From Fimbriimonadaceae bacterium (GTDB lineage: Bacteria > Armatimonadota > Fimbriimonadia > Fimbriimonadales > Fimbriimonadaceae): 60,266 nt of DNA. Location: contig JBKJJL010000224.1 of assembly GCA_046597875.1 (NCBI GenBank), forward strand, positions 1 to 60,266, in the 5' to 3' direction. Within the stretch, counting starts at the first letter, position 1. Every line of letters begins with the position of its first letter. Both the position numbers and the translations under genes were made by a program. Below the pieces are notes generated by a model, which saw nothing but the letters and a program-made list of their open reading frames with translations, did no database searches and had not been told where the DNA came from. Shown here piece by piece: positions 3,742 to 56,318 of the stretch.

Positions 3742-4152
3742 ATGAAACTAATGGACAAATTTCAAAAAGTCGCCCGAGCAGTCGCAAACGTGGCTGGATC
3801 GCCGTGGGGATTCTTGAGTGCGAGCCTCATCGTCATCGTTTGGGGATTGACCGGACCGCTATTCGGATACTCAGACACCTGGCAACTGGTCATCAATACC
3901 GGGACGACCATTGTCACTTTTCTCATGGTGTTTCTCATCCAATCAACTCAGAATCGTGACGGGGAAGCCATGCAGCTGAAACTTGACGAACTCATACGCG
4001 CGATTGGAACTGCCCGCAACGAGCTCTTCGATTTAGAGAACATGAGCGAGGCAGAGGTGGCAAAAGTCCGAGCGGACTTTGACAGGGATCGCAAGAGCAA
4101 TGCGGACGGTGCCGCTGTTTCCGAGGGTCCGCCTCCCGTGGTCTCGCCCTGA
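3742..4152 (+). CDS. low-affinity iron permease family protein (Fet4-like small membrane protein)
   Basis: 136 aa. Near-consensus family block GSPWGFLSASLIVIVWGLTGPLFGYSDTWQLVINTGTTIVTFLMVFLIQSTQNRD...LKLDELIRA. Confidence 0.8.
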   Translation: MKLMDKFQKVARAVANVAGSPWGFLSASLIVIVWGLTGPLFGYSDTWQLVINTGTTIVTFLMVFLIQSTQNRDGEAMQLKLDELIRAIGTARNELFDLENMSEAEVAKVRADFDRDRKSNADGAAVSEGPPPVVSP

Positions 4153-6743: not shown

Positions 6744-7634
6744 ATGAAGCGATTGGCTCTCGGAATCGTCGCCATGGTGGGAGTTGCAGTTGGGACCGCT
6801 TGTCTGTCGGCCGTAGGCTCGCAATACCCCATGGTCCACGTCGCCTCCGAAGAAGTCGCGATCATTTATGATGCACGTACTCAAACAGAACACTTCATCC
6901 GGAAGGCGAAATTTGATAGCGAGGCGCCCGATTTCGCGTTTGTGGCCCCGACTCCTTCTCGGCCCGAACTTGGGGAGGCGGATTCGGCGTTATTCACACT
7001 CCTGAGGAAGTTCGTCCCGCCGCCACCGCGAAACGAGGGCGGCGGGTTGGATCGCCGAGCGGGCGGGGGCAGAGAACCTGCCGTGCAAGTAATCGAGACC
7101 AAGGATGTCGCTGGAATGCGGGCCACGATCCTGAAGGCTCGCAAAGCCGCGGACCTTCAGAAGTGGCTCCGGGCGAACGGCTACGCAACGCCGGTTGGGT
7201 TTACCGATTGGGTCCGCCCCTACCTGGTCGGCGATTGGCACCTAACCGCGTTCAAGTTTATCAAGAAAGGCGAGAGCGCGGACGTGAGCACCAAGTCGAT
7301 ACGGCTGAGCTTCAAAACGGATCGTCCCTACTATCCTTATCGGATACCGAAGGGAGAAAACCCATTCGGGCGCGACCTACGCATCTATGTCGTCGCTCCG
7401 TTTCCAGTAGACGCAAAGACGGGCAACATGCCCAGAACTCGCCAGCTATTTCATGCGGGCGCACTGCCCGATGAGACCTACCTTCGTCTGCTTGCACTGG
7501 GGCAAATCGACCCGGATCTCGCGGGACCACGGGCCGTGCTGACGATCTTTAGCGACAGCGGAGACGAACGCGCAGGGGCGGATGACCTCTGGTTTACCGC
7601 TTCTTCATCATCCGCCAGCCGGTCTTTGCCTTAA
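6744..7634 (+). CDS. hypothetical secreted protein (DUF2330-like)
   Basis: Start taken at MKRLALGIVAMVGVAVG (signal-like). Block EEVAIIYDARTQTEHFIRKAKFDSEAPDFAFVAPTPSRPEL resembles DUF2330 proteins; the assignment is by memory only. The last ~40 nt overlap the tail of the convergent GNAT pseudogene. Confidence 0.5.
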   Translation: MKRLALGIVAMVGVAVGTACLSAVGSQYPMVHVASEEVAIIYDARTQTEHFIRKAKFDSEAPDFAFVAPTPSRPELGEADSALFTLLRKFVPPPPRNEGGGLDRRAGGGREPAVQVIETKDVAGMRATILKARKAADLQKWLRANGYATPVGFTDWVRPYLVGDWHLTAFKFIKKGESADVSTKSIRLSFKTDRPYYPYRIPKGENPFGRDLRIYVVAPFPVDAKTGNMPRTRQLFHAGALPDETYLRLLALGQIDPDLAGPRAVLTIFSDSGDERAGADDLWFTASSSSASRSLP

Positions 7635-8020
7635 ATCCCAGCTTCGCGTTGATGGCTCGCATGGGTGCGTTTCGATCGTCGTTGAATGTGTGCATGCGAA
7701 GGCCACCTTCCGCCTTAGGCCCAGCGAATGCCTATCTTGAGGGGCCTCGCTGACCTCGATCAGGCGTCTTCCGAGTACTTGTCGCTGCGACGCATCAGCA
7801 ACCTCCGCGCGCACCATAAAAAATCTTCTTCTCGACTGGCACGTGGACCGAGTTCGCATAGGCGACGACGGCCCCCTGCGAAACCTCAAGAACCCATCTG
7901 GCGAACGGGAACTCCTTCGGAATAGCGCTCGGGGGATGATGGCTTTTCTCCTCTTCGTTGAAAGGATTTGGTAGCAAGGAATCTTTCTTTGGCCGGGCCA
8001 AACGGCGTAGACCGCCTGCT
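7594..8020 (-). pseudogene. decayed paralogue of the GNAT gene at 9810..10742 (frameshifted, ~480-bp internal deletion)
   Basis: Nucleotides 7579-7730 align to 9795-9946 (first 47 nt identical, ~90% overall by eye) and ~7735-7975 align to ~10425-10660. Homologous peptide is split over two frames (KEFPFARWVLEVSQGAVVAYANSVH in ORF 7795..8067; VRAEVADASQRQVLGRRLIEV in ORF 7608..8153). The 5' limit is approximate. Confidence 0.75.
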
Positions 8021-9652: not shown

Positions 9653-9809
9653 CGGACATTACCACAATGTTTCCCTCGCTGATACTTTATTTTTTCCGCA
9701 GCATTGCGGCGTTTGCTCGGAATTTGGTTGTTCTTTTGCGAGGTCAAGTTGTCGAGGCCCAAGTCAGTCATGCTGGAGCATCGATGGCCTGGAGCGGATG
9801 ACCTCTGGT

Positions 9810-10742
9810 TTACCGCTTCTTCATCATCCGCCAGCCGGTCTTCGCTTCAAATCCCAGCTTCGCGTTGATGGCTCGCATGGGGGCGTTTCGGTCATCGTTG
9901 AACGTGTGCATGCGAAGGCATCCTTCCACGTTCGCCCAGCGGATGCCGGCCACCTTGAGCGCCATCGCAATGCCTCTTCCGCGGTGGCTTTGTACAACAC
10001 CAGTGAAGTCGGTCGTAAAATCGCCTCCCGACAGCGGACCCACCAGCGAAAGCCCAACCCAATCCCCATCGGCTCCAACCGCGATGATGCACCCCTCCGG
10101 GCGGAACCATCTCGCGTTGAAGATCGAAGGCTCCCATTCGTCAAACCCCGATTGTCCCCAAAGTTCTATTCCAGGCGTGTCCGAATCCGTTGAATAGTAG
10201 AGGTCAAACAGTTTCCGCCGGTTTGCCGGAGTATCACCTTGGACTTGCCATGAAGTCAGGTTTGCGCCGGGCCGGCTGGGATCCGTCCAGTTCTGGATAT
10301 CCAGCTCAACTCCATACAAGTGCTGTTCTTGCTCGTAGCCCGCGGCTTCTAGAAACCGGCGTTCCCGGTCGAGGTCGTCGCGGACCTTCGACATGAGCCA
10401 CTCCGCCTCGTGCTCCCTCGCGAATGCTTCTGCGACTTCGATCAGTCGCCTGCCTATGCCCTGTCGCTGCCATGGATCAGCAACCTCGGCGCGTACGAGG
10501 AAAATCTTCTTGTCGACCTGCGCGTGTACCGAGTTTGCATAGGCGACGACGTCCCCGGTCGAGTTTTCAAGGACCCACCGCGCGACCGGAAACTCCTTCG
10601 GATATCGCTCAAACCGGGCGCTCAAGGAATCTGGCGTCTCGGGCTCTTGCTCGAATCGGTTGAAGAGATCTGCCACTGTCGCCGCATCCCGGACTTCGTA
10701 CGGCCGAAGTCGAAGCCCTAATGGGAACTCATTTGAACTCAT
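9810..10742 (-). CDS. two-domain GNAT family N-acetyltransferase
   Basis: Start at MSSNEFPLGLRLRPYE (10742). Two acetyl-CoA-binding cores: VADPWQRQGIGRRLIE and VQSHRGRGIAMALK. Confidence 0.8.
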   Translation of the reverse strand: MSSNEFPLGLRLRPYEVRDAATVADLFNRFEQEPETPDSLSARFERYPKEFPVARWVLENSTGDVVAYANSVHAQVDKKIFLVRAEVADPWQRQGIGRRLIEVAEAFAREHEAEWLMSKVRDDLDRERRFLEAAGYEQEQHLYGVELDIQNWTDPSRPGANLTSWQVQGDTPANRRKLFDLYYSTDSDTPGIELWGQSGFDEWEPSIFNARWFRPEGCIIAVGADGDWVGLSLVGPLSGGDFTTDFTGVVQSHRGRGIAMALKVAGIRWANVEGCLRMHTFNDDRNAPMRAINAKLGFEAKTGWRMMKKR

Positions 10743-11722: not shown

Positions 11723-13078
11723 CTAAGCTTCCTCAGCGGCTACCTTTTTCTTCGCCGCGGGTTTCTTGTTCCGCGCGACAGGAGCTTCCGGGGCGCCGGC
11801 AATCTCGACTTCTTCAATCGTCGCGTGGGAGTTCAAGAAGTTCATTACTCGCCGATTGATTGACCTATGCGTCAGCTCTTGCAGGGCATTGTTTCGCTTC
11901 AATTCGTTAAACAATTCTTCGGGTGAAATCTTGAACTCGACCGCCATTTCCGTCAGTTCTAGGTTCAAATCTTGATCGTTGAGCTTCATCTCCTCTTTCA
12001 AGAAGATCTCTTGAATCGCCTGCGCTCGCTGCACAAACAACTTGGCTTCCGTCTTAACGGCCTCGACCAACTGATCGACCGTCATCCCGTTGTCCTCGGC
12101 GAACTGCTCGATCGTTTTCTTCTTTTCCTGCTGCTCCTTCGCGATGTCTTGGAGACGCTGATAGGCGACCTGCTCCCACATCGGATCTGGCACATGGATC
12201 GTGCTGGCACTGAGCAAATTATCGAGAAGCTGCTCGTTTACAAACTGTTGGGTTTGCTCAAGCTTTGCGGTCAGCATGACTTCCTTCAGTCGTGATTTGA
12301 GTTCGTTGATATTGCCAAGCTGGTACTGTTGCGCGAATGTGTCGTCCAGTTCCGGCATCTTAACCGAACTCACCGAGCGCACGGTGACTTGGCAGTGGTG
12401 TTTTTTGCCCGCCCAATCCTTCTCCTGGAAGCTGTCGGGGAAGGTTAAATCCGCGCTCTTCATGTCCTCGGCGTTCATTCCCAGGAGCATCGCGTCGAGA
12501 TCGGGGAACGTCTGTCCAGCGATGGTCATAAACGTTCGGCCATCCCCCGACTCACCGTCGGCTCGAATGTTCACTACCGTAACATCGCCTTCGCGAACGC
12601 CTCTATCGGTCACCGCTTCGCGGGTGGATTTGCGCTGGCGCATTTCTTCAACCTGGTGCTCGACCTCGGCGTCGTCGACGTCGATTTTGGTTCGCTGCGC
12701 TTTGAGGCTCTTGTAATCACCCAGTTCGACTTGTGGCTTCAATGGCACTTTGGCGGTGAACTCACATTCTTTCGCGTCCTCATCCAGCTTGCTGATTTCC
12801 ACCGCGGGACGGAGGAACGGCTCAAGTTCTTGCTCTTTAAGCGCAAGTTTGAAGGTAGCGTTGACGATGTGATCGGCCGCGGATTCGTAGAGGGCTTCTT
12901 TGTCTACGCTCTGTTTGACAAGATGTCTGGGCGCGTGGCCGGGACGAAAACCGGGGACCCGGACTTTCTTTCCGGCGTCCTTGTAGGCGCGATCGAATCC
13001 AGTCGTAACTTGCTCGGGGGCACAGACGATGTTCAAGCGAACGGTGCAAGGGTTCAGTTCTTCGCGGGTAACGGTCAT
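11723..13078 (-). CDS. tig: trigger factor (ribosome-associated chaperone/PPIase)
   Basis: Start set at MTVTREELNPCTVRLNIV (13078), matching the canonical trigger-factor N-terminus. Ribosome-binding signature VPGFRPGHAPRHLV. Lys/Ala-rich C-terminal tail. The track ORF extends to 13189. Confidence 0.9.
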   Translation of the reverse strand: MTVTREELNPCTVRLNIVCAPEQVTTGFDRAYKDAGKKVRVPGFRPGHAPRHLVKQSVDKEALYESAADHIVNATFKLALKEQELEPFLRPAVEISKLDEDAKECEFTAKVPLKPQVELGDYKSLKAQRTKIDVDDAEVEHQVEEMRQRKSTREAVTDRGVREGDVTVVNIRADGESGDGRTFMTIAGQTFPDLDAMLLGMNAEDMKSADLTFPDSFQEKDWAGKKHHCQVTVRSVSSVKMPELDDTFAQQYQLGNINELKSRLKEVMLTAKLEQTQQFVNEQLLDNLLSASTIHVPDPMWEQVAYQRLQDIAKEQQEKKKTIEQFAEDNGMTVDQLVEAVKTEAKLFVQRAQAIQEIFLKEEMKLNDQDLNLELTEMAVEFKISPEELFNELKRNNALQELTHRSINRRVMNFLNSHATIEEVEIAGAPEAPVARNKKPAAKKKVAAEEA

Positions 13079-30257: not shown

Positions 30258-32501
30258 ATGCTTGCATTGCTTGCTGCAACTCTCTTGGCTGCGCCGAATG
30301 ACCTCGCTGAGGCCTACAAACGTGCGGATGCACTCCCGGCATTGACGCGCGGGAAGGCGTTGAACCTGACCCTCGCGCCTAACTGGATTGGGACGGACGC
30401 ACTTTGGTATCGGGCAGAACGGAAAAACGGAGGGAGCGAGTACATCGTTGCCACGCTGAACGGATCCAAGCGGCCCCTCTTCGACCACACTCGCTTGGCC
30501 GACGCTTTGGCAAAGTTGGGGACGGAGAAGGTTGATTCCGCGAAACTTGCCCTTACGAACTTGGAGGTCGCTGGGGACCTTAACTCAATGGCGTTCACTT
30601 ACGCCACTAAGCGGTACACCGTCAGCTTCTCGGATTACGTTGTGAAGTTATCGGGAACGCAGAGCACGGTCCAAGAAGCGGCGTCCGAAGTGCCGGACGA
30701 GGAAGCCACGTTCACCGAGTTTCCCGTTCCGCGAGCAGGAGCCACGCTCAGCCAGCAAACCCCGCGGAGCAACGACTCCCCTGACGGTAAATGGACCGTT
30801 GCTGTCGCTGATGGCGTCGTCAAAGTGACGCCGAAAGCGGGTGGAGATGCGATCACCCTTTCCCAAACGCCAGGATTCACGCAAGCGCGTTGGTCGAGAG
30901 ATTCGAGATATCTTGTCGGGATGCGTCTGCTTCAAGGCGAGCGCAAACAAGTTCATCTATTGGCCTCTTCGCAACGTGCGGCGACCCGGGCCCAGCTTCA
31001 GAGTCGGTTCTACGATCAACCGGGAGATGTTCTGGATCGCTACGAACCGTACGTGTTCGATGTCGCCGCGAAAACCGAGAAAAAAGTGGACGTCGAACCC
31101 ATCATGGGCGGCGGGCAACCTTGGGCGGGCCCTCCCGGAGTGGATATGCGCGACGGGCGTTTCATGATGGACTACCCCGAGCGCGGTTATCAGAGGTTCC
31201 ACGTCGTCCAGGTCGATTTCGCAACTGCAAAGGCAACCCATTTGGTCGACGAATCTTCACCGACGTTCTTTGACAATACGAACGCGATTCTACGGGTCAT
31301 TGAGCCTTCGAATGAACTCCTCTGGCGTTCCGAACGTGACGGTTGGGGCCATCTGTACTTGTTAGATGGAACGACGGGAGCGGTCAAGAATCAGGTCACG
31401 AAAGGTGACTGGGTAGTCCGCTCCGTTGATAACGTCGACGAGAAAGAGCGAACCCTGACCTTTATGGCAAACGGTCGTGAACCGGGCGATCCTTACCTGC
31501 AATACCTGTACCGGGCAAACTTGGATGGCACCGATCTAAAGGTGCTGACTCCAGGACAGGGCAACCACCGGGTGGTCTGGGCGCGGGATCGAAAGAGCTT
31601 CATTGACACCTATTCTCAAATCAACGTGCCGCCCGTTCACGAATGGCGAAGGGCGGATGGAACCCTCGTCTCTGAACTGGAGAAGGCGGACATAAGCGGT
31701 CTTGCCGAGTTCAAGTTGAAACCTGCCGAACCATTCGTCGCAAAGGGCCGCGATGGAACCACCGACATTTGGGGCATCGTCGTAAAACCCACGAACTTTG
31801 ACCGGCGCAAGAAGTATCCGGTGATCGAGAACATCTACGCGGGACCGCATGATTCACACGTGCCCAAAACATACTTCCCGCTTTTGCGGATGCAGCGGCT
31901 TGCCGAGTTAGGATTCATCGTCGTCCAGATTGACGGCATGGGCACTCGAAATCGGGGCAAGAAGTTTCACGATGTTTGTTGGCAGAACCTCGCCGACGCA
32001 GGATTTCCGGATCGTATTTCCTGGATGAAAGCCTTGGCCGCCAAGGATAAATCGGTTGATATCTCGCGGGTGGGCGTCTACGGAACCTCGGCCGGGGGCC
32101 AGAATGCCGCCGCAGCTCTCCTGTTCCACCCGGACTTTTACAAGGTTGGCGTCGCCTCATGCGGGTGCCACGATAACCGGATCGACAAGCAGTGGTGGAA
32201 CGAGCAATGGATGGGCTACCCGGTGGGCCCGCATTATGCGAAGCAGTCGAATATTGATAACGCGGGGAACTTGAAAGGGAAGTTGCTCTTGATCGTTGGC
32301 GAACTCGATCGCAACGTGCCTCCAGAGTCAACGATCCGCTTTGCGGATGCTTTGCAGAAGGCGAAGAAAGAGTTTGATTTTGTCGTCATTCCGGGCGCTG
32401 ACCACACCGACGGAGGGGATTACGGCGAACGCAAGCGCAGAGATTTCTTCGTGCGGTGGCTGCTGGGTAAGGAGCCGCCAGAGTGGAACTCGGCAAAGTG
32501 A
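30258..32501 (+). CDS. S9 family peptidase, dipeptidyl-peptidase IV-like
   Basis: 747 aa with a signal-like N-terminus, a DPP-IV-type propeller half and a C-terminal hydrolase with GVYGTSAGGQNA, ...GELDRNV... and GADH. Confidence 0.85.
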   Translation: MLALLAATLLAAPNDLAEAYKRADALPALTRGKALNLTLAPNWIGTDALWYRAERKNGGSEYIVATLNGSKRPLFDHTRLADALAKLGTEKVDSAKLALTNLEVAGDLNSMAFTYATKRYTVSFSDYVVKLSGTQSTVQEAASEVPDEEATFTEFPVPRAGATLSQQTPRSNDSPDGKWTVAVADGVVKVTPKAGGDAITLSQTPGFTQARWSRDSRYLVGMRLLQGERKQVHLLASSQRAATRAQLQSRFYDQPGDVLDRYEPYVFDVAAKTEKKVDVEPIMGGGQPWAGPPGVDMRDGRFMMDYPERGYQRFHVVQVDFATAKATHLVDESSPTFFDNTNAILRVIEPSNELLWRSERDGWGHLYLLDGTTGAVKNQVTKGDWVVRSVDNVDEKERTLTFMANGREPGDPYLQYLYRANLDGTDLKVLTPGQGNHRVVWARDRKSFIDTYSQINVPPVHEWRRADGTLVSELEKADISGLAEFKLKPAEPFVAKGRDGTTDIWGIVVKPTNFDRRKKYPVIENIYAGPHDSHVPKTYFPLLRMQRLAELGFIVVQIDGMGTRNRGKKFHDVCWQNLADAGFPDRISWMKALAAKDKSVDISRVGVYGTSAGGQNAAAALLFHPDFYKVGVASCGCHDNRIDKQWWNEQWMGYPVGPHYAKQSNIDNAGNLKGKLLLIVGELDRNVPPESTIRFADALQKAKKEFDFVVIPGADHTDGGDYGERKRRDFFVRWLLGKEPPEWNSAK

Positions 32502-32515
32502 CACCACGAAGCTCC

Positions 32516-33256
32516 ATGAGGGAAGACCGCGTGTTTAGCGAGCAGGAAGTCGCCGAGATCATGCGGCGAGCGGTGACACTTCAGGAGACCGCTAAGGAAG
32601 GCGGCGCCGAATACCGACCGGGTGTTACCAAGGCCGAACTCCAACGTGCGGCGAAGGAAATGGGGGTTGATCCCGCATTCTTGGAACAAGCGATTCTTGA
32701 GAAGCTTGACGGTGTTCCCGCCAAGCATCATGGCTACTTGCCCGAGGAGCAACGCGTCGTGGAGGGCGAACTCGACCCTGCCGACTTTGACATCATCCTC
32801 GATCAAATTAAGACCCGAGCACGAAGCCGGAATCCGATTACCCAGGTTGGCAGAAGCCTGCGAGGGCAAACGTTTACCGGCTCGGGGCTCGCAAATCTGG
32901 AAATCACTTCTCGAAACGGCCGCACTCGGATTAACCTGAAGCCGTTTCCGGTATTTGAGATTTTGGGGACTTTCTATCCCGCGTTCCTGGTCAGCATGAT
33001 AGCGGGTGGTTCACTCGCCCAGCATGGCATGGGTGGCATCGCGACCGCGGTGGCGGGCGGCGCGTTTGGGCTGGCCATTCTCGGATTTCGACAGTGGATA
33101 TCGAAGTCTCGCGAGGCGACGGCCCGGCTGGCGGACAAATTGCAAAGCGCGGTCAGCGATCATGTTGGGAAAGACTTGCGAGAGAACTTGGGCGCCGTGC
33201 CTGCCGCCGAGGAATCTAAGGAGAACGCGGACATCGAACAAAATCAATCCACCTAG
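32516..33256 (+). CDS. hypothetical membrane protein
   Basis: Start at MREDRVFSEQEVAEIMRRA. Two TM helices near residues 160-215. The N-terminal module is paralogous to that of 25085..25519. Confidence 0.5.
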   Translation: MREDRVFSEQEVAEIMRRAVTLQETAKEGGAEYRPGVTKAELQRAAKEMGVDPAFLEQAILEKLDGVPAKHHGYLPEEQRVVEGELDPADFDIILDQIKTRARSRNPITQVGRSLRGQTFTGSGLANLEITSRNGRTRINLKPFPVFEILGTFYPAFLVSMIAGGSLAQHGMGGIATAVAGGAFGLAILGFRQWISKSREATARLADKLQSAVSDHVGKDLRENLGAVPAAEESKENADIEQNQST

Positions 33257-33278
33257 CGACCAAGGTAAAACGCATCCC

Positions 33279-36200
33279 ATGCGTCGCTGGCTCTTGTTGT
33301 CGCTCCTCCTCTCGTCCCTTGTCCAAGCGGACAAGATTCCTTCGCCAAAGGAGTTTCTCGGACACGACGTTTGCGAAGACTATTATCTCGCGAACTACCA
33401 AGAACTGACGGCCTACTGGAATGAGCTCGACAAGCGGAGCGATCGCTTGAGCGTTGAGAGCATCGGCAAGACGGAGGACGGACGCGATCAGCTGATGTGT
33501 GTGATCACCGACCCTGGAAACCGGCGCAACTTGCAGAGTTACCGCAAAGCCAGTGAGCGACTTGCCCGAGCAAAGGACTTCAAGAACGACGACGACGCGC
33601 GGAACTTCGCTCGCAAACAGAAGGCGATTATCTGGATCGATGGTGGGCTCCATGCCAGCGAGGTCTTGGTCGCGCAGCAGCTCATCGAAATGGCCTACCG
33701 GCTAACGACCGCGCAGGACGCGGAAACAAAGCGCATCCTGATGGACTGCGTGATCCTCCTCGCCCACGCGAACCCGGATGGTCACGACTGGGTCGCCGAC
33801 CACTATATGCGCCGATCAGACCCAAAAACTCGAAGCGCGGCGGGCTTGCCTTTTTTGTACCAGAAGTACTGCGGCCACGATAATAACCGCGATTTTTACG
33901 CCAACAACATGGCGGAAACCCGCAACATCAACCGGATTTTGTACTCGACCTGGTATCCGCAGATTGTTTACAACCACCACCAAAGCGCGCCGGCGGGGAC
34001 GATCATGTTCGTCCCTCCGTTTCGGAACCCCTTTAACTACCATATGGACCCCATGACCGCGATCGCCACCGATCTCGTGGGCACCCACATGCACCAGCGC
34101 ATGATCGCGGAAGGGAAGGCCGGTACCGCGATGCGAGGCTCAACGCTGTACTCCACGTGGTGGAATGGCGGCCTGCGGACGACGACCTATTTCCATAACA
34201 TGATCGGAATCTTGACCGAGACGTGGGGCTCGCCCAATCCCGGCCTTTTACCTTTCGTTCAGAGATTTCAGATTCCTTCAACTGACGTTCCATTTCCGGT
34301 GGAAGCGGGGAAGATGTGGCATTTGCGGGATTCCTTGGAATACGAGATCTCCGCGAACTATGCGATTTTGGATTACGCATCGCGCTATCGGGAGAGGTTG
34401 TTGTTTGACTTTTACCGGGCCGGGCGGAACTCGATTGAGAGGGGCTCGAAGGACACGTGGTCGCGCTATCCTTCTCGGCTCACGGCAGGCGGCGCGGAAT
34501 CGCTGAAGAAGGCCGAGAATCGCGACGCAAGGATGTATGTGATCCCTTCGAACCAACCCGATTTCCCGACCGCGTGCAAGTTCGTGGAAAAGTTGATGCA
34601 ATGCGGAATCGAAGTGGAGCGGATCGTGGACAGTGGCACGTCCGTCTCGGGCGTGGAATCCGGAGAGTTTCGGGTGGTGACTTCCGCAAGCAGTGGCACC
34701 GGCGTCCCGCCCGTGCGTACCACGTCCGTCCCGGGCCTGGAATCCGGAAGGCAGGACCGGGACGATCCGGCTACGCATGACCGGGACGGTCATGCCACTT
34801 GGCCGGTTGGGTCTTTTGTTATTCGGTGCGATCAGGCCTTCCGACCCCACATCCTCGACATGTTCGAGCCACAGGACCACCCAAACGACTTCCAATATCC
34901 GGGCGGCCCCCCGATTCCACCGTACGACAACGCGGGATACACCTTGGCTTACCAAATGGGAGTTAGGTTCTATAGGGTCCTCGAAAATGTACTGGTTCTC
35001 ACCGAAAGGGTCATCGAGGTTCCTCGAATCGCAAAGTTCGGGGCGCAAGAGACTCCGACACGCATTATCTTTCCCTCAGGTGAGCTCAGTGCTTTCGCAG
35101 CCGTGAACGTCGCCCTCAAGCAAGGGCTTCATGTCACTGACGCCCGAGCATTCGATCCTACGATTCGCGGTGCAAAAGGGTGGCTGAATGTTTTTGGGGA
35201 GTCTTCAGCCTTGAAGAAGTATGTCGACAATCTAAAGGGAGGAAGTGTTGGAGCCCTATTCGAGTACTGCGGGACTGAGTCGCCAGAAGCCAAGCTCGAA
35301 TCGGAAAGGTACTTTGCATTGATCAGCGCGCGCGATAAGGCTCAACCATGGCCAAATCCCATCGGAGAGCAGTCACCGGAGGTGGCACTGATGAAAAAGC
35401 CCCGCGTAGCTCTCTGGGATCGGTACGGCGGCTCAATGGAATCCGGATGGACCCGATACGTCCTTGAGCAGTTCGCGTTTGATTTCGACGTCGTGTTTCC
35501 GCCCGACCTCGATATGGGCGACTTGAACAGCAAGTACGACTGCATCATCCTGCCGAACCTCGCCGTTCCCGGGCCAGGAGGGCGCGTCGTTGGTACCGGC
35601 CCTGGGGGAGAAACAGGGGAGGACGATCCGGAACCCTCTCTATTCCCAAGGGAGACGGTCGGCGATGGCTCGCTCGCCGGGGTCAGGGTTGGGCCTTGGT
35701 TGCCTTCGCAGTGGATCTCGGGCCTTGATAGCCCTTCTCCCTTGGAAAGAGAGCAGGGGAGCCCGGTTTCCGAAACCCTCTCTCTTCCCAAGGGAGAGGG
35801 TCGGGGATGGCTCGTGCCCCGGGGTGAGGGTTGGCTTCCAACGTCCTTTGCTTCCTTTGAACAAGGAGTAATCGCGAGCCACCCCTCCTCCCCCAGCCCC
35901 TTCTCCCCTGGGAGGAGAGAAGGGGAGGCCGGAGCTGCCTTCCAAGGCGGCGGTGGAGCGCAACCTCAATCTCTCGCGCAAGACCCAACAATTCCGTACT
36001 TCTATCGCCGACGCATTGGCACCATCGGCGAAAAGACCATCAAGGAACTTCGCAAGTTTGTCGAAAACGGAGGGCATCTACTCTGTATCGGGTCAAGCTC
36101 AATCAACATCGCTCGTCAACTCAAGCTGCCCGTCGAGAGCGCTCTCGTGGATGACAAGGGCGTGGCCCTGCCCAATACGAAGTTCTACATTCCCGGATCT

Positions 36201-36566
36201 GTACTGAAGATGAAGCTGAATCCGGGGCCGCTCACCCGGGGCATGGAAGACTACGTCGACGCGATGTTTGATGAAAGTCCCGCGTTCCGGATTGCCCCAC
36301 CCCCCACCCCCCTCCCCGCGACACAAGGCATTCGCGGAGAGGGGGAGCCACTCGTCGTTAGCTTCTTCGATACCGACAGGCCGCTGCGCTCGGGTTGGGC
36401 GTGGGGACAGGAGACGTTGAAGGGAACTGCGTCCGTGGTTGATGTGCCGTTAGGGAAGGGTAGGGTCGTCCTTTACGGGCCGGAAATTCTCTTCCGAGCT
36501 CAGAGCCACGGAACGTTCAAGCTCCTGTTCAACGCGATCTTTCGGTCGGCGAACGGGAACAGGTGA
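33279..36566 (+). CDS. secreted M14 family zinc carboxypeptidase-like protein carrying two in-frame repeat-element insertions
   Basis: ATG at 33279 gives the signal peptide MRRWLLLSLLLSSLVQA. M14 zinc site context WIDGGLHASE. The single ORF stays open through the repeat segments at 34631-34799 and 35627-35930. Confidence 0.8.
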   Translation: MRRWLLLSLLLSSLVQADKIPSPKEFLGHDVCEDYYLANYQELTAYWNELDKRSDRLSVESIGKTEDGRDQLMCVITDPGNRRNLQSYRKASERLARAKDFKNDDDARNFARKQKAIIWIDGGLHASEVLVAQQLIEMAYRLTTAQDAETKRILMDCVILLAHANPDGHDWVADHYMRRSDPKTRSAAGLPFLYQKYCGHDNNRDFYANNMAETRNINRILYSTWYPQIVYNHHQSAPAGTIMFVPPFRNPFNYHMDPMTAIATDLVGTHMHQRMIAEGKAGTAMRGSTLYSTWWNGGLRTTTYFHNMIGILTETWGSPNPGLLPFVQRFQIPSTDVPFPVEAGKMWHLRDSLEYEISANYAILDYASRYRERLLFDFYRAGRNSIERGSKDTWSRYPSRLTAGGAESLKKAENRDARMYVIPSNQPDFPTACKFVEKLMQCGIEVERIVDSGTSVSGVESGEFRVVTSASSGTGVPPVRTTSVPGLESGRQDRDDPATHDRDGHATWPVGSFVIRCDQAFRPHILDMFEPQDHPNDFQYPGGPPIPPYDNAGYTLAYQMGVRFYRVLENVLVLTERVIEVPRIAKFGAQETPTRIIFPSGELSAFAAVNVALKQGLHVTDARAFDPTIRGAKGWLNVFGESSALKKYVDNLKGGSVGALFEYCGTESPEAKLESERYFALISARDKAQPWPNPIGEQSPEVALMKKPRVALWDRYGGSMESGWTRYVLEQFAFDFDVVFPPDLDMGDLNSKYDCIILPNLAVPGPGGRVVGTGPGGETGEDDPEPSLFPRETVGDGSLAGVRVGPWLPSQWISGLDSPSPLEREQGSPVSETLSLPKGEGRGWLVPRGEGWLPTSFASFEQGVIASHPSSPSPFSPGRREGEAGAAFQGGGGAQPQSLAQDPTIPYFYRRRIGTIGEKTIKELRKFVENGGHLLCIGSSSINIARQLKLPVESALVDDKGVALPNTKFYIPGSVLKMKLNPGPLTRGMEDYVDAMFDESPAFRIAPPPTPLPATQGIRGEGEPLVVSFFDTDRPLRSGWAWGQETLKGTASVVDVPLGKGRVVLYGPEILFRAQSHGTFKLLFNAIFRSANGNR
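34631..34799. repeat. GC-rich hairpin/direct-repeat insertion inside the M14 CDS
   Basis: Internal duplication CAGTGGCAC...CACGTCCGTCyCGGGCsTGGAATCCGGA (34631-34664 and 34691-34748), plus a perfect hairpin CATGACCG-GGA-CGGTCATG (34776-34794). It encodes the low-complexity ...DRDDPATHDRDGHAT. Limits are approximate. Confidence 0.6.
35627..35930. repeat. two tandem copies of the ~150-bp composite palindromic (REP/MITE-like) element, in frame inside the M14 CDS
   Basis: Copy 2 shares the 30-nt string AACCCTCTCTCTTCCCAAGGGAGAGGGTCG with the intergenic copy at 52046-52195. The same module order follows (GGGGTGAGGGTTGG..., ...CCCCTTCTCCCCTGGGAGGAGAGAAGGGGA). Limits are approximate. Confidence 0.75.
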
Positions 36567-36673
36567 GTGGTGTTGGGGTGTTACGGTGTTACGGTGTTAC
36601 GGTGTTGAATCTATGCTTAATGATCCAATACCTTAATACCCCAACACTTTAACACCATTAAACACCCCGCACA
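36567..36673. repeat. inverted arrays of 8-bp repeats (5 x nnGGTGTT, then ~6 x nnAAyACC); probable terminator structure between convergent genes
   Basis: GTGGTGTT GGGGTGTT ACGGTGTT ACGGTGTT ACGGTGTT ... CCAATACC TTAATACC CCAACACT TTAACACC ..AAACACC. The arms pair with G.U wobbles only in the + strand RNA. Confidence 0.6.
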
Positions 36674-50565: not shown

Positions 50566-51213
50566 ATGATTGCTGCTAGCATCTTTCTGCTTGCTTTTCA
50601 GTCCGGCATTTCGCTGAGCTTTCCTACCGGTGGCGAACTCGTGTATCGCGAAAGCTGGCGCATTACCGAGTCGGATGAGCAGAAAATGGTTTCTGCAGAC
50701 GCGGATCGCATCGTTCGAATGCGCGTAAAGGAAACGACCCGTGGGCGCACTCGTTTCGAAGTTAGCTTTGAGGATCTCAACGTTCGCAGCAGCGACAAGG
50801 GCCTCATTGACGATCTTCGCGGTTGGCTGGAGCAGAGTAACCGCGATCAGTGGGTCAACGACCGCGGCTACGTCGAGCGGAAAGGCGACGATATCCAGGG
50901 AAAACGTCCTTTCTTTGGCCTTGTCTTGCCGCCCCCTGCGGGAACTTTCCCCGAGGTTTGGAAGGCGAAGCTCCTTCCGCCGATCGGCTCGGACCGGGCG
51001 ACTGAGTTCGAGTTTCGAGTCGAGAGTGGCCAAAGCGACCTGCCGATTCTCGTGTCGGCGAAAGATAAATTCGGGGAGACGAAACTTGATTTAGCTGGAA
51101 GGTTGACTTTGTCGCTCAATGGCGACCTCGTCAACGGGGACCTCACCACGACGATTGTCGATTCCGACGCGAAGACGACGACGGTCATCGAATACCGCTT
51201 CCAAAAGCGATGA
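50566..51213 (+). CDS. hypothetical secreted protein
   Basis: Start at MIAASIFLLAFQSGISLSF, 6 nt after the DUF1385 stop. Beta-rich. No family recognised. Confidence 0.5.
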   Translation: MIAASIFLLAFQSGISLSFPTGGELVYRESWRITESDEQKMVSADADRIVRMRVKETTRGRTRFEVSFEDLNVRSSDKGLIDDLRGWLEQSNRDQWVNDRGYVERKGDDIQGKRPFFGLVLPPPAGTFPEVWKAKLLPPIGSDRATEFEFRVESGQSDLPILVSAKDKFGETKLDLAGRLTLSLNGDLVNGDLTTTIVDSDAKTTTVIEYRFQKR

Positions 51214-52043
51214 AGGGATTTTTGATTTTGCGCGTGTTTGCGCTCGCGGCCTTCGTTAGCCTTGGAGGTCGAAGCTTCTCGGAACCGATCCAAGATCTGC
51301 CGCGCGGGACTGAAATCAAGCTCATCCTCATGAAAGAGCTCAACTCGGGCGGAAGCGTCATCCGTGAGGAGGTTCCGTTTATGGTGTCGGAGGACGTCAT
51401 CGTCAACGGGCGCGTGATTCTTCGCGAGGGAACCATCGCGACTGGCATTGTAAAGCAAGTGCGAAGGGAAGGGGCTCTGTCGGCCGTGCTCTTTGACAAG
51501 CCCGCTCGGCTCGCTGTCGAACTTGGTTCAACGTGGGATTCTCGGGGCCGGGCCATCCCGCTATTTGCCAAGCTGAATGGCAAAGATCGAAGGCTCTATC
51601 AGTTCAATCGCGTCAACACCAAGGTGCCTCAGCCGGATGACCGCGAAGCCCACAACGCCCTGAAGTCACCCCATAAGCGACGGGTGATGGAGATGCTCGT
51701 CGATACCCTCAAAGGTTCGAGATCCATTGCCGACATCAAAGATCGGTCGGAGCGGGCCACTATTATGGAGATTGCGCAAGGCCTGCGAATGCACAACGTG
51801 GCTGAGCTTCTGCTGAACAATCGAATCCTCGATCTCGCAACCCTGGGAGCCCAGTTCAACGCTCCCGGCTTGGCGTCGATCTTCGCCGCCCGCGCCGCGG
51901 TCGGGGCCTTGCAAATCACCTTCCGCGCGGCAAAAGAGGTCGCCCACATCGCGACGCACTTTCCGGGATTCCTTTCAAGGAAGTTCGGGGGAAGGAACAT
52001 TTCGGCCCCCCTTGGCCTGGAGATCAGCGCTTTCGCGGGATGA
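51210..52043 (+). CDS. hypothetical secreted protein
   Basis: ATGA overlap with the upstream gene. Signal peptide MKGFLILRVFALAAFVSLGG. No family recognised. Confidence 0.5.
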   Translation: MKGFLILRVFALAAFVSLGGRSFSEPIQDLPRGTEIKLILMKELNSGGSVIREEVPFMVSEDVIVNGRVILREGTIATGIVKQVRREGALSAVLFDKPARLAVELGSTWDSRGRAIPLFAKLNGKDRRLYQFNRVNTKVPQPDDREAHNALKSPHKRRVMEMLVDTLKGSRSIADIKDRSERATIMEIAQGLRMHNVAELLLNNRILDLATLGAQFNAPGLASIFAARAAVGALQITFRAAKEVAHIATHFPGFLSRKFGGRNISAPLGLEISAFAG

Positions 52044-52045
52044 GT

Positions 52046-52195
52046 CCTTCGGAACCCTCTCTCTTCCCAAGGGAGAGGGTCGCGGATGTTTGTGCCGCGG
52101 GGTGTGGGTTGGGTATTGGCTACCTTCGTTTCCGGTCTCGCGGAAGCTAGGCACGGCGAGAGCCAACCCACATCCCCAGCCCCTGCTCCCTCGGG
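52046..52195. repeat. ~150-bp composite palindromic (REP/MITE-like) element, intergenic copy
   Basis: Hairpin 1: ACCCTCTC-TCTTCCCAAGG-GAGAGGGT. Hairpin 2: GGGGTGTGGGTTGG-N49-CCAACCCACATCCCC (perfect 14/15-nt arms). It ends in CAGCCCCTGCTCCC and starts 3 nt after the stop codon. Confidence 0.8.
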
Positions 52196-52230: not shown

Positions 52231-52440
52231 CTCTCAGGACGAATATTAGAGCACTCAGGATGAATATTAGAACTCTATTGTTAAATATGAGAGCTCTCAG
52301 GACGAACATAAGAGCCCTCAGGACGGGTGTGAGAGCTCTGAAGATGAGTTAGAGAGCTCTCAGAATGAATATTAAACCTCTAATGCTAAGTATGAGAGCT
52401 CTCAGGACCAGCAGGAGCGCTCTCAGGACGAGTATGAGAG
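52231..52440. repeat. 10 x 21-bp perfectly phased tandem array, consensus CTCTCAGGACGAATATGAGAG (dyad CTCTCA-N9-TGAGAG)
   Basis: Ten consecutive 21-nt units were read off with no indels. Unit junctions create the 12-bp palindrome TGAGAG|CTCTCA. No ORF of 60 aa or more on either strand. Confidence 0.85.
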
Positions 52441-52644: not shown

Positions 52645-53076
52645 GTGAAGCGGCGCAAGTGGTGGTTCATTGGGTTAGGCATCATGCTAATCGGCGCCTG
52701 CATCTGGGCTTGGAAGGCGACCGAGCGGCCACCGTACGCCTTCATGGAGGGTTCGCGGCTCTGGTTCGTGGGCGAAACGTGGAGTCCAAGCGACGACGTT
52801 CTAGTCGAATACACCAGCCGAAAACCATTCGAAGAGCTCGTAGATGCAGCCAATCGCGAGGTGCCCCGTCGTTGGGAGGTGACTCGCGACGAAAACGGGA
52901 GGCTCACCCGTGCGTACACTGCCGCGTTCGACTTGAACCTATCCCGCGCAGACTACCTCGATCGTTCGAGCTATCCCCCCATTCCAGAGGATGTCACGAC
53001 CATCATCACTATTGAGCGGCTAGCTACGCCGTTGGACCGAATCCGACTGTGGATCTACGGTTTACGTTGGAAGTGA
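52645..53076 (+). CDS. hypothetical membrane-anchored protein
   Basis: GTG start. MKRRKWWFIGLGIMLIGACIWAW (N-terminal anchor) plus a ~115-aa soluble domain. No family recognised. It sits between the two repeat arrays. Confidence 0.45.
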   Translation: MKRRKWWFIGLGIMLIGACIWAWKATERPPYAFMEGSRLWFVGETWSPSDDVLVEYTSRKPFEELVDAANREVPRRWEVTRDENGRLTRAYTAAFDLNLSRADYLDRSSYPPIPEDVTTIITIERLATPLDRIRLWIYGLRWK

Positions 53077-53187: not shown

Positions 53188-53299
53188 GGGTCGCTCACTA
53201 AACCAATCAGGGGCGTCCCCAAACAAAAAGGGGGCCTCCCCATACCAACTGGTGACGTCCCCATTTGAAAAGAGGGAGGCGACCCCGAACCTAAATGAA
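53188..53299. repeat. about five tandem units of ~21-22 bp, each a G4-N3-C4 mini-palindrome plus an A-rich spacer
   Basis: GGGTCGCTCAC.., GGGGCGTCCCCAAACAAAAA, GGGGGCCTCCCCATACCAACT, GGTGACGTCCCCATTTGAAAAGA, GGGAGGCGACCCCGAACC.. with unit starts at 53188, 53210, 53230, 53251 and 53274. Confidence 0.6.
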
Positions 53300-53308
53300 G
53301 GCTGGGAG

Positions 53309-53490
53309 TTCCGGAACCCTCTCTCATCCCAAGGGAGAGGTTCGGACGACGTTCGGGGGGTGGGTTGGGTTTTGGCTAACCTTGCCTTCGAGAGCAAAGA
53401 CTCGGCGAAAGCCAACCCTCATCCCCCTGACCCCTTCTCCCTTGGGATGGGAGAAGGGGAGTTCCGGAAACCTCTTCCTTCCGCACGAGC
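53309..53490. repeat. composite palindromic (REP/MITE-like) element, full copy plus the start of a second
   Basis: TTCCGGAACCCTCTCTCATCCCAAGGGAGAGGTTCG ... GGGGGGTGGGTTGG-N~45-CCAACCCTCATCCCC ... CCCCTTCTCCCTTGGGATGGGAGAAGGGGA, then GTTCCGGAAACCTCTTCC restarts. Same orientation as the 52046 copy. Confidence 0.8.
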
Positions 53491-53501
53491 CATCGGTTCG
53501 G

Positions 53502-56318
53502 TTATCCTCCGGGCTTCGTCAGTTCAAATCCGAAATCCTTCCCCTTGTTAATCGCTGGGACTCCTTCGACCATCCACTTCGGCGCCGGGGCGCCTTTTAG
53601 GTAGTGATCGAAGTACTGCTGCATGCGGATGGACCAGTCCTTTCGATTCTTACGCTGAACCAGGTTATGATCCTCCTCGTTGTAAACCACGAGCCAAGAC
53701 GGCTTGGATAGCCTCCTCAGCGCGGTGAACAGTTCGATGCCCTGATACCAGGGAACCGCGCCATCCTTGTCGTTCGACATGATGAGGAGCGGAGTCTTGA
53801 TCTTGTCGGCAAAGAAGATAGGCGAGTTTTCGATAAACCTAAGCGGCTTGTCCCAGATTGTCCCCGCGATGCGACTCTGACCGTGCTCGTATTGCATCTG
53901 GCGCACGAGACCCGATCCCCAGCGGATTCCGCCATAGGCCGCTACCATGTCTGAAACGGGCGCTCCCGCGCATGCCGCGGCGAACATATTGGTCTCCGTC
54001 ACCAGGTAAGCCACCTGGTAGCCGCCCCAGCTTTGGCCCTGGATCGCCAAACGCTTTGGATCGACATACCCGCGTGCGACGATGCTGTTCACTCCCGCTG
54101 TGATCGCCGACACCGCGCTCTCACCTGGGTATCCCTCTTTATAGGGAATGTCGGGGATAAAGATAAGGTAGCCATTGCTGGCGTACATCGGCAAGTTGAT
54201 CGTGCTCGCGCTTGGAGCAGGTGGGCGATACTGGTTCAGCGTGTCCGAATCGCGCTCGTAGAAGTAAGCGATCATCGGATACTTCTTCCCGTACTCGAAG
54301 TTCTCGGGCTTGATGAGAATGCCTTGGAGCTCCTCGCCATCGTTGGAGCGATAGCTGACGAGCTCTGCCTTGCCCCAGTTATAGTCCTTCTGCTGCGGGT
54401 TTGCGTCGCTTACCTGGACAGGACTGTCCATCTTCGAGTTCGTTACCCAGTAGTTGGGAAACTCGATGAAATCCTGACGGGTGATCGCCCACTTGTCGGC
54501 GTTCTTCGCCTTTCCAGAGAAGGTGAACCGCTTGTCGCCCCAGATGAGCTGCTGGTCGTTTCGACCGTCGAGGTTCACCCGATGGAATCCAGATGCCTTT
54601 GTGTTGTCGTTCGTGACGGCGGCAAGGAACGAATCGCCGATGTAATCCTGATCTGGATCGGTTCGCACGATTCGATACGCGCGTTTCGATGATCGCCCGG
54701 TGGTTATTCGATCTGGTTGCTTGGTTCCGGTAGGATCGACTCGCCAGACATCGAACTCGTCGTACACTAAGGCAGAGTCGTCGTTCGCAGTCCAACCCGC
54801 GAGCCCGTAGAGAGGCGGATAGTCGGGATTATCGAACTGGATGTTCCAGATCGGATGGGGAATCTTTGCGCTCAGACTCACTCGCTTTCGGGTCTTGACG
54901 TCAATAACGAACATGTCTTTCTTCGGCGCGTCGTATCCCCAAACATACTTGCCCGCGGTCGAAAAGCCCATGGTCCCTTCAAACTTGCTGGATAGCAACT
55001 CCGTGCCGCCGGTCTGAAGATCGACAAGGAAGAGATCGGTGAAATCCAATCCCCACGAGATTTCTCGGCGATAGGACAGATTGCTTTGGGCGAGTCCGAT
55101 CGGGCCATCCAAGTTTGCGGCGATGGTCACGGTAGCTATCTTGGGATTCTCCAACTGGACGACTTTTCCCGAATCCAGATGAACTAAGGCGTCGTAGGTT
55201 CGGTTCCGTTCAGTGGCCGCTTGGAGAAGTTGCTGCGGCATCATGAGGGGGTCGTTCCAGGACCAAACGTCCACGCTGACGCGATCTTCTTCGGGAATCG
55301 GATTGGTCTTGTCCTCGGTGGCCTTTGGCTGGGTCGCGATGAGCAGCCTTTTGCCCGATTTGGAGAAACGCAGCGTGCCAGAATCTGCGACGACGTATCC
55401 ATTTGCAATGCCTGCCGTGCCTTCCTTGGCGACGAGCTTGGGTTCCTTCGAGCCTGCTTCGTAAAGAAAAACCGACGGAGATGGCTTCTTCGCAGTGTAG
55501 TCGTCTTTGTCGGTTTGAAACGCGAGCTTCTTGCCGTCTTCGGTGAGGGTCAACTTGGTGTAGCGGCCCATCTGAGTAAAGAGTTGGGTCGTGGCCCCGG
55601 TCGCAAGATCGCGATAAACGATGCCGTCACCCGCTCCATCCTTGGTTGAAAGCGTGTAGACCAGCGCCGTTCCGGTCTTATTGAACTGGCCTGTGACGAC
55701 GAAATCGAGGCTCGTTTCTTTGCCCGTGCTGAGTTCTCGAAGAACCCAGGTGTCGCCGGGCTTGTGATCTGCCTTCTTCTTTGGCTTCTCGTCTTTCTTG
55801 GGCTCAGCCGGCTTTTCGGCTGTCTTTTCTGCGGCTGGAGCCGGCTTGACGGGCTCGGGCTTGGGTGGTTCTGGGCGATAGAGCAGCCAACCCTTATCTT
55901 CCTCAGCCATCGTGAACGAGGTGACTTTTTCTTTCTCGAACTTCTCACCCGTTGCGAGGTCAAGGACGACGAGCGAGTTCTTAGGCATGTCCTCGGGCTT
56001 CGCTTTGTCGACACGTGCTTTTTTGCTGTCGGCAAATTTCGGAATGATCGTCGCAACGAGGTACTTCGAGTCGCCGCTAAACCTGAACGTCGAGACTCGC
56101 TCGATTGTGGTCGCTTTGCCGCCGTCAAAGGGCTTGAGCTCGAGCACGGCATCGCCCTCTTGCGGGGCCATCACGTACGCAAACCACTTGCCATCATTCG
56201 TAAATGTGGCCGAGCGGACGGATTTCCATCCGTCGTAAACCGAATGATCGAGCACTTTCTTTTGCCCGACGCCAATCGCCGCGAGAACGACGATCCCTCC
56301 AACCCATGCAAGTTTCAC
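53502..56318 (-). CDS. secreted S9 family (prolyl oligopeptidase-type) serine peptidase
   Basis: 938 aa. Signal peptide MKLAWVGGIVVLAAIGV, propeller-like N-terminal part with a P/K/E-rich insert, and a C-terminal hydrolase with GQSWGGY, ...NDKDGAV... and EDHN. Confidence 0.85.
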   Translation of the reverse strand: MKLAWVGGIVVLAAIGVGQKKVLDHSVYDGWKSVRSATFTNDGKWFAYVMAPQEGDAVLELKPFDGGKATTIERVSTFRFSGDSKYLVATIIPKFADSKKARVDKAKPEDMPKNSLVVLDLATGEKFEKEKVTSFTMAEEDKGWLLYRPEPPKPEPVKPAPAAEKTAEKPAEPKKDEKPKKKADHKPGDTWVLRELSTGKETSLDFVVTGQFNKTGTALVYTLSTKDGAGDGIVYRDLATGATTQLFTQMGRYTKLTLTEDGKKLAFQTDKDDYTAKKPSPSVFLYEAGSKEPKLVAKEGTAGIANGYVVADSGTLRFSKSGKRLLIATQPKATEDKTNPIPEEDRVSVDVWSWNDPLMMPQQLLQAATERNRTYDALVHLDSGKVVQLENPKIATVTIAANLDGPIGLAQSNLSYRREISWGLDFTDLFLVDLQTGGTELLSSKFEGTMGFSTAGKYVWGYDAPKKDMFVIDVKTRKRVSLSAKIPHPIWNIQFDNPDYPPLYGLAGWTANDDSALVYDEFDVWRVDPTGTKQPDRITTGRSSKRAYRIVRTDPDQDYIGDSFLAAVTNDNTKASGFHRVNLDGRNDQQLIWGDKRFTFSGKAKNADKWAITRQDFIEFPNYWVTNSKMDSPVQVSDANPQQKDYNWGKAELVSYRSNDGEELQGILIKPENFEYGKKYPMIAYFYERDSDTLNQYRPPAPSASTINLPMYASNGYLIFIPDIPYKEGYPGESAVSAITAGVNSIVARGYVDPKRLAIQGQSWGGYQVAYLVTETNMFAAACAGAPVSDMVAAYGGIRWGSGLVRQMQYEHGQSRIAGTIWDKPLRFIENSPIFFADKIKTPLLIMSNDKDGAVPWYQGIELFTALRRLSKPSWLVVYNEEDHNLVQRKNRKDWSIRMQQYFDHYLKGAPAPKWMVEGVPAINKGKDFGFELTKPGG

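Follow-up and report, generated by a model that had tools for sequence, protein, structure and literature searches.

Palindromic repeats carried in frame by an M14 metallopeptidase gene of a soil Fimbriimonadaceae bacterium

A stretch of 60,266 nt from a Fimbriimonadaceae bacterium (assembly GCA_046597875.1, contig JBKJJL010000224.1, positions 1 to 60,266; here called the 60-kb window, GC 52-59%) was analyzed around the open reading frame (ORF) 33279-36566 on the + strand, which runs for 1095 codons without interruption and encodes a 1095-aa M14-family metallopeptidase, P0001, with an N-terminal signal-like peptide. This gene holds four repeat-derived segments that are read in frame and belong to three palindromic families, namely element B (34692-34799), two tandem copies of element A (35627-35768 and 35769-35930) and element C (36309-36344). 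Here we describe these elements, their relatives outside the gene and the state of the host protein, and we discuss how repeats of this kind may have become part of a coding sequence.

The host gene was identified from its ORF, Pfam, Foldseek and orthologues. P0001 matches Pfam Peptidase_M14 (PF00246) with an E-value of 8e-20 and 72 bits against a cutoff of 21.6, and H125 and E128 of its HxxE motif are invariant across 71 sequences. The AlphaFold model of the protein was matched by Foldseek to carboxypeptidases T, A and B with a probability of 1.00. On sequence and model P0001 is thus classed as an M14 zinc carboxypeptidase with a carboxypeptidase fold and a predicted activity. The named relatives come from metagenome-assembled genomes (MAGs) of Fimbriimonadaceae/Armatimonadota. 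An earlier description, made from the letters alone and called here the sequence-only reading, had given an intact 1095-codon M14 ORF at these positions, which the open frame and the Pfam match bear out.

Element A was found in four copies, all on the + strand. The 32-mer GGAACCCTCTCTCTTCCCAAGGGAGAGGGTCG, with at most 3 mismatches, occurs at exactly 4 sites in the window (35630, 35772, 52051 and 53313), its expected count being 0 in 100 dinucleotide shuffles. A repeat search grouped the four sites alike for the 5′ module (D2, 66 nt, 70-88%) and for the 3′ hairpin (D4), and a profile built from the four copies gave no fifth copy within the window. By alignment, profile and core matches, copy 1 in the gene (35627-35768) is degraded and is read in element frame +1 (PEPSLFPRETVGDGSLAGVRVGPWLP...), and copy 2 (35769-35930) is largely intact and is read in element frame 0 (SETLSLPKGEGRGWLVPRGEGWLP...SPSPFSPGRREGEA). 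The two other copies are intergenic. The one at 52046-52195 starts 3 nt past the stop of the ORF 51210-52043 and the one at 53309-53460 lies between the convergent ORFs 52645-53076 (+) and 53502-56318 (-); such placements, 3′ of a stop or between convergent genes, are typical of repetitive extragenic palindromic (REP) sequences. The copy at 53309-53460 is abutted head to tail by the truncated start of a further copy at 53462-53482 on the + strand (TTCCGGAAACCTCTTCCTTCC; D7, 85% to the element 5′ end), and GGGAGTTCCGGAA stands at both of its ends, overlapping the element end and the start of the truncated next copy. A 30-nt identical run, AACCCTCTCTCTTCCCAAGGGAGAGGGTCG, is common to 35774-35803 and 52053-52082. 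The sequence-only reading had already described two tandem copies of about 150 bp in the ORF and the same element at both intergenic sites, together with the 30-nt run, the motif GGGGTGAGGGTTGG that comes next, the terminal hairpin CCCCTTCTCCC..GGGAGAAGGGG, the peptides of the element and the unbroken frame; the copies are supported by the 32-mer core and the repeat search, the motifs are all present and the translations are correct.

The surroundings of the intergenic copies are repetitive in another manner. In the gap just after the copy at 52046-52195 there are about ten tandem 21-nt units (CTCTCAGGACGAATATTAGAG) at 52231-52440, which have a 105-nt super-period and are AT-richer than their surroundings, and just upstream of the copy at 53309 three 21-nt units (AAACCAACAGGGGCGTCCCC) occupy 53200-53263.

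In its anatomy element A is a composite palindrome of about 150 nt, in which a 5′ hairpin H1 (CCCTCTCTCTTCCCAAGGGAGAGGG, 12-bp stem), a small hairpin, a long-range stem (GGGGTGAGGGTTGG...CCAACCCTCATCCCC) enclosing a variable centre and a 3′ hairpin H4 (CCCCTTCTCCC..GGGAGAAGGGG, 9-11 bp stem) follow one another from 5′ to 3′. H1 and H4 are mutual inverted repeats (53317-53338 against 53436-53457, 22 nt, 91% complementary, I14), and the profile search gave palindromic self-hits across the whole element. When folded as single-stranded DNA and compared with shuffles, three copies gave z-scores of -2.5, -4.7 and -3.6 (-4.7 for 53309-53460), and the degraded copy 1 folds weakly (z -1.8). In copy 1 the long stem is without its right arm, and the centre is shorter by 26 alignment columns. 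The two copies in the coding sequence are 71% identical and no closer to each other than to the intergenic copies (65-73%), and a recent local tandem duplication was rejected on this ground.

P0001 was compared in alignments of 14 and 71 sequences with about 70 orthologues that are 49-72% identical to it and about 860 aa long, against 1095 aa for P0001. The segment aa 786-883 (nt 35634-35927, 294 nt) has no counterpart in any of the about 70 orthologues and is therefore, on this comparison, taken as an insertion rather than as ancestral protein. It lies between ...GPGGETGEDDPE and AGAAFQGGGG... within a Gly-rich linker whose native form is itself variable in length (...GPGGETGEDD / AGAAFQGGGG...DPTIP), and its net length of 294 nt keeps the frame and adds 98 residues. 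The alignment with M14 orthologues that the sequence-only reading had proposed thus fixes the insert at aa 786-883 and gives no support to an ancestral origin (0 of about 70 carry the segment); the disordered loop of about 100-120 aa that had been expected is disordered by prediction, and its length is refined to 98 aa. Along with it, aa 457-502 and the C-terminal hairpin segment are also missing from almost all of the 70 orthologues.

These two further segments hold elements B and C, which had been missed when only two in-frame inserts, both real, were described. Element B (34692-34799, + strand) is a palindromic repeat of about 110 nt recognized by inverted repeat, fold and depth; it lies in the P0001-specific segment aa 457-502 (nt 34647-34784), is read in frame as ...VPPVRTTSVPGLESGRQDRDDPATHDRDGHAT, and forms the longest local inverted repeat of the window, with 48-nt arms that are 73% complementary and a DNA fold of -38.2 kcal/mol (z -4.3). 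Element C (36309-36344, + strand), recognized by its fold (z -3.35) and depth, consists of a short hairpin, CCCCTCCCCGCGA..TCGCGGAGAGGGG, whose in-frame reading is PPPTPLPATQGIRGEGEP, at about aa 1006-1024. A near-identical hairpin stands at the same site in the orthologue P0002 (L009:12399-12420), which is 71% identical to P0001, and another in the intergenic DNA of L007 beside the orthologue P0010. A further P0001-specific segment of 29 aa (EAKLESERYFALISARDKAQPWPNPIGEQ; 35286-35372, aa 670-698) was noted in the hypervariable middle region, where it is partly helical in the model; it has no excess depth and is not evidently repeat-derived.

The locus is present in four soil-metagenome runs of 2024, X1 and X2 among them, and is reproduced by the independent Logan assemblies of these four runs; depth was taken as the summed depth of metagenome contigs, which is not a per-genome copy number. 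Three pile-up sites were found in the M14 gene (34696-34843, 35732-35953 and 36250-36397), and in the rest of the window lineage-specific pile-ups occur only at the two intergenic copies of element A and at the contig start. Over H1 of the copy at 52046-52195 (52054-52080) the depth is about 192 against a baseline of 6-9 in X1 and 83 against 6-8 in X2, and over the 5′ hairpin of copy 2 it rises to 138 against 9.4, so that H1 overall stands at about 10-30 times the baseline in the source metagenomes. Element B reaches 27-35 against about 9.4 (X1), and the region of element C, 36250-36397, reaches 95/68 against 8.5, both elements being multi-copy in these metagenomes. Copy 1 has no excess depth at ≥90% identity and is therefore diverged. 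H1 is thus the abundant unit, and the 150-nt element A is a mosaic, as in the bacterial interspersed mosaic elements (BIMEs). Two other peaks, one at 42.7-43.3 kb and one at 46.7-47.3 kb, were set aside as not being repeats, since the conserved N-terminus of a biotin carboxylase and a tRNA account for them. The contig start, 1-116, has a depth of about 70 against 7-9 in the source metagenomes and is thus multi-copy; it shows an 'opposite strands' joint at 1/53, and another inverted repeat probably forms the end of the contig.

The element frames of the two copies were compared next to their translations. The start-to-start distance of copies 1 and 2 is 142 nt, and for this reason their element frames differ, copy 1 being translated as PEPSLFPRETVGDG... 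and copy 2 as SETLSLPKGEGRGW.... The arms are pyrimidine and purine tracts, because of which most frames are free of stops (13 of the 24 frame translations of the four copies), and the stop-free frames encode low-complexity peptide rich in Pro/Ser/Leu or in Gly/Glu/Arg. From these translations it was estimated that a random double insertion leaves the ORF open in about (1/3) x (~0.25) of cases, and a survival by filtering, without selection for the peptide, is plausible. The differing frames of the copies argue for neutral tolerance over a selected peptide.

As to the protein, P0001 keeps 121 of 121 positions that are invariant among the other 70 sequences and 235 of 237 with a conservation of 90% or more, which puts it at rank 14 of 71, and the positions kept include ones downstream of every insert. 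Its AlphaFold model is confident overall (predicted template modelling score, pTM, 0.82). At aa 462-495 and 768-894 the predicted local distance difference test score (pLDDT) falls short of 50 and the model has no secondary structure, and in the 10-residue block aa 1011-1020, the site of element C, the mean pLDDT is 54; the insert of element A lies between a strand at aa 755-758 and a helix at aa 896-900. All three insert sites are thus predicted to be low-confidence, unstructured segments of the kind expected of permissive loops, and the structure prediction that had been proposed as a check places the element A insert in an unstructured segment of low pLDDT between confident elements. Copy 1 is old, as its lost right arm, its shortened centre and its lack of excess depth indicate, yet it is free of stops and frameshifts.

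Orthologues carry inserts of their own. P0004 has a lineage-specific insert of about 160 aa (L001:4809-5291, aa 444-605) in the first loop, not in the loop of element A, and this insert holds an A-like module, CCCTCGCCCTTCCAAGGGGAGAGGGTCGG...CCGGGGTGAGGGTTGG, at L001:5033-5114 (nhmmer E 1.3e-6), an independent capture in frame. In P0010 an insert of about 50 aa (L007:12005-12180) lies in the same Gly-rich linker as element A, the second loop; a 15-nt inverted repeat (12023-12037 / 12121-12135) whose sequence is unlike element A marks its bounds. On these comparisons the orthologues were hit independently by palindromic inserts in the same permissive loops.

Taken together, element A is considered, with good confidence, to be a repeat of the REP/BIME or miniature inverted-repeat transposable element (MITE) type, built of hairpins, about 150 nt long and non-autonomous, and its copies in the coding sequence to be neutral or near-neutral passengers in a permissive loop. 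A REP/MITE-like repeat had also been proposed by the sequence-only reading, and the alternative that the intergenic matches are fragments of paralogous genes is ruled out by their positions (3 nt after a stop; between convergent genes), by the high H1 depth and by the same architecture in intergenic DNA of related genomes. In the mechanism that we propose, element A would be mobilized in trans by a transposase, either a RAYT-like Y1 enzyme (RAYT, REP-associated tyrosine transposase) or a DDE enzyme recognizing the terminal inverted repeats. The DNA of the Gly-rich, disordered linker of the M14 gene has taken up two copies head to tail, and elements B and C have entered two other variable loops likewise. 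Selection would have purged insertions that broke the frame or the fold and left those in permissive loops, so that the copies of the elements in the coding sequence may be seen as neutral or near-neutral passengers.

Several points weigh against this interpretation. Only H1 is highly repeated, the remaining part of element A standing at 2-3 times the baseline, and these values are contig depths and not those of one genome. No empty-site allele was found in the four metagenome runs, and there is no direct sign of mobility at the locus. The copies of element A have no consistent target-site duplication, the flanking TTCCGGAA forming a palindrome by itself and belonging to the element ends, and no transposase, RAYT or parent insertion sequence (IS) was seen in the window by the repeat search and by Pfam on eight ORFs. 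Translation of the full-length product is something that we infer from the sequence. Lastly, short-read contigs end inside copy 2, which makes the exact tandem number, and hence the frame, dependent on the assembly.

This last point leads to the explanation that the repeat induced a misassembly and that the true locus has one or some other number of element A units. In all four runs the Logan contigs do break off within the 5′ hairpin of copy 2 (35801 or 35834), and 35802-35883 is covered, apart from the original assembly, by one 109-nt contig with 2 differences; however, a single 3201-nt contig of X1 (32601-35801) contains the gene start, element B, copy 1 and the junction of copies 1 and 2 with zero mismatches, contigs from the three other runs agree with it, the 3′ junction of element and gene is spanned by a contig at 35884-36349, the depth is even on the two sides of the insert (9.4 and 8.5) and both flanks are colinear with the orthologues, so we hold an artefact of assembly to be very improbable. 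Equally little weight is given to the explanation, raised before as a functionally dead gene, that the gene is dead or dying, with a C-terminal domain disrupted by the inserts and a frame that is open by recent accident. Four insertions in a single gene are unusual and no other gene of the window has any, but the frame is open over 1095 codons, the 121 invariant positions are kept on either side of the inserts with a conservation rank of 14 of 71, copy 1 decayed after its insertion while no stop or frameshift arose, and the inserts all fall in low-confidence, unstructured segments flanked by confidently predicted elements. Because no family-invariant residue has been lost and the linker that holds the insert is predicted to be disordered, tolerance is favoured over a dead gene, which on sequence and model appears unlikely.

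There is also the explanation of exaptation, in which the segments would have been recruited to a function as flexible linkers or loops, such as the spacing or shielding of the C-terminal domain of a secreted enzyme, and selection on the protein would keep them. It could draw on the persistence of the inserts in an otherwise well conserved gene, on the independent inserts in the same loops of the orthologues P0004, P0010 and P0002, and on the site of element C that is common to P0001 and P0002 (71% identical). Yet the copies of element A are read in different frames and retain no common peptide, most orthologues do well without inserts, the insert segments are predicted to be fully disordered, and repeated hits in the same loops are expected from permissive sites alone, and for these reasons exaptation is regarded as improbable. 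Of the two outcomes that had been left side by side earlier, tolerated or exapted, the first agrees with the invariant residues and the disordered linker, and the second is left without support by the different element frames of the copies.

The distribution beyond the window was surveyed at the level of peptide and DNA. Searches with the insert peptides among billions of proteins gave only P0121 and P0122, short ORFs of one other contig which read through tandem arrays of element A with a 40-aa period, and therefore head-to-tail arrays are a habit of the family; P0123 from the same search was discarded as a false hit to an unrelated repeat protein. The exact core (AACCCTCTCTNNTCCCAAGGGAGA) gave 0 matches in public genome and metagenome contig collections, from which the family as such is thus absent. 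A looser two-module pattern was found at 13 loci in other phyla, where the chance count expected from our own calculation is about 0.02; these loci are in Enterovirga and Sandarakinorhabdus (both Alphaproteobacteria), in Anaerolineaceae and in several metagenome contigs. L010, L012 and L016 were rejected as G-rich tandem tracts. Most of the two-module loci go beyond the pattern that was searched for: H1 has its complementary left arm, the gap holds a small hairpin, CCCTCACCCC is present as the partner, and there is a second CCCTCTCCC..GGGAGAGGG hairpin. The composite architecture, CCCTCTCCC-loop-GGGAGAGGG, small hairpin, GGGGTGAGGGTTGG ... CCCTCACCCC and second CCCTCTCCC..GGGAGAGGG hairpin, stands in intergenic DNA at L002-L006, L011, L013-L015 and L017, and in L006 it forms a 444-nt-spaced array (3020-3220, 3465-3665 and 3910-4110). 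Copies inside genes were considered for L013-L015 and rejected, since the long stop-free frames there are antisense shadow-frame ends in high-GC DNA and the copies are intergenic. No Rfam family covers element A or the wider loci, the only hits being sub-threshold miRNA hairpin models that amount to chance. It may be speculated that the shared architecture (GGGAGAGGG-type hairpin, small hairpin, GGGGTGAGGGTTGG...CCCTCACCCC stem and second hairpin) marks an undescribed cross-phylum superfamily of mosaic palindromes, spread with a common mobilizing enzyme or binding factor, whose Fimbriimonadaceae members prefer Gly-rich linker DNA resembling their own purine arms; we consider this doubtful, and if it were true these elements would systematically create new disordered loops in secreted enzymes and would not be rare survivors.

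The neighbourhood of the gene is rich in peptidases, the eight ORFs scanned with Pfam including two S9 peptidases and a glycosyltransferase. A dipeptidyl peptidase IV (DPP-IV)/S9 peptidase gene at 30258-32501 lies upstream of the M14 gene at 33279-36566 and is separated from it by an ORF of 257 aa of no known family, and a further S9-family protein is encoded at 53502-56318 (53.5-56.3 kb). Straight after the stop of the M14 gene an 8-nt tandem repeat (GGTGTTAC x 4.8) occupies 36569-36606, followed at 36625-36656 by CCAACACCTTAACACC x 2, which is in part the complement of that repeat; the repeats of 36569-36656 may be a terminator-like or repeat structure. Elsewhere in the window, 7575-7921 and 9791-10602 share direct repeats of 71-147 nt with 76-90% identity at a distance of about 2.2-2.7 kb (D3, D5 and D9), which are probably a sign of paralogous genes lying side by side.

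The case is a well-bounded one, in which a free-living soil bacterium, from a phylum that has been little studied, reads selfish hairpin repeats through into protein, and it supports the view that bacterial proteins gain disordered loops via repeat DNA captured at permissive sites. There are practical effects as well, in that such inserts inflate protein lengths, break short-read assemblies within genes and give rise to spurious low-complexity 'hypothetical proteins' in MAG annotation. No new mechanism is involved, the principle having been known since the Rickettsia palindromic elements (RPEs), and these precedents (PMC10969869, PMC3733652) had been missed by the sequence-only reading. The known systems that come nearest are of four kinds.

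BIMEs and REPINs of Enterobacteria and Pseudomonas are mosaics of REP hairpins that are mobilized by RAYT transposases. Element A is like them in being a mosaic of hairpin modules in which H1 is far commoner than the composite, and in standing in head-to-tail arrays 3′ of genes. It differs from BIMEs, which are extragenic by definition, in having copies in coding sequence as well and in its unrelated sequence, and from BIMEs and REPINs in that no RAYT gene was seen in the 60-kb window by the Pfam scan on eight ORFs.

Bacterial MITEs such as Correia/NEMIS, ERIC, RUP and Nezha are in some cases found inside genes (Delihas 2007, PMC2759123). Like them, element A is about 150 nt long, is multi-copy, has terminal inverted repeats (22 nt, 91%), is without coding capacity of its own and occasionally makes in-frame fusions; unlike them, it has no clear target-site duplication or identified parent IS, and each of its terminal repeats is itself a hairpin.

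Intragenic REPs have been described in Opitutus terrae, Thauera, Thioalkalivibrio and R. conorii, with double REP insertions in uvrA of Opitutus terrae, and the sites of such insertions were argued to be linkers or loops (Di Nocera et al. 2013, PMC3733652). The present elements resemble these GTAG/CGTC REPs, which are short hairpins mostly 3′ of genes or between convergent genes, with a minority inside known genes, sometimes twice per gene, and which occur as singles, dimers and clusters (PMC3733652). In the four copies of element A, GTAG is absent and CGTC/GACG is not consistently placed, and the stems do not start with A/T pairs, unlike those of CGTC REPs (PMC3733652). REP inserts are mostly of 20-30 aa, as dimers or grouped repeats, whereas the unit of element A is composite, measures 150 nt, contains a long-range stem and adds about 50 aa with each copy.

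The RPEs of Rickettsia, of which RPE-1 to RPE-10 have been described (Ogata et al. 2000 Science 290:347; Ogata et al. 2002; Claverie & Ogata 2003; summarised in the review PMC10969869), have palindromic repeats that lie in frame as their hallmark and are reported to encode a conserved peptide (PMC10969869). As with RPEs, the repeats described here are palindromic, about 100-150 nt long and of several families; they are present between genes and in frame in unrelated, apparently functional protein genes, at fold-compatible positions where they are read through as extra peptide. In contrast to RPEs, their host is a free-living soil Armatimonadota of 57% GC and not an AT-rich obligate intracellular alphaproteobacterium, element A is read in two frames within one protein and has no conserved peptide, its copies are in tandem and three families share one gene; a relationship at the sequence level is not expected, and with such a host phylum and base composition it is very unlikely that element A is a member of the RPEs. 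Element A is classed here as a new family of a known kind, which acts like an RPE or an intragenic REP but is placed in neither group.

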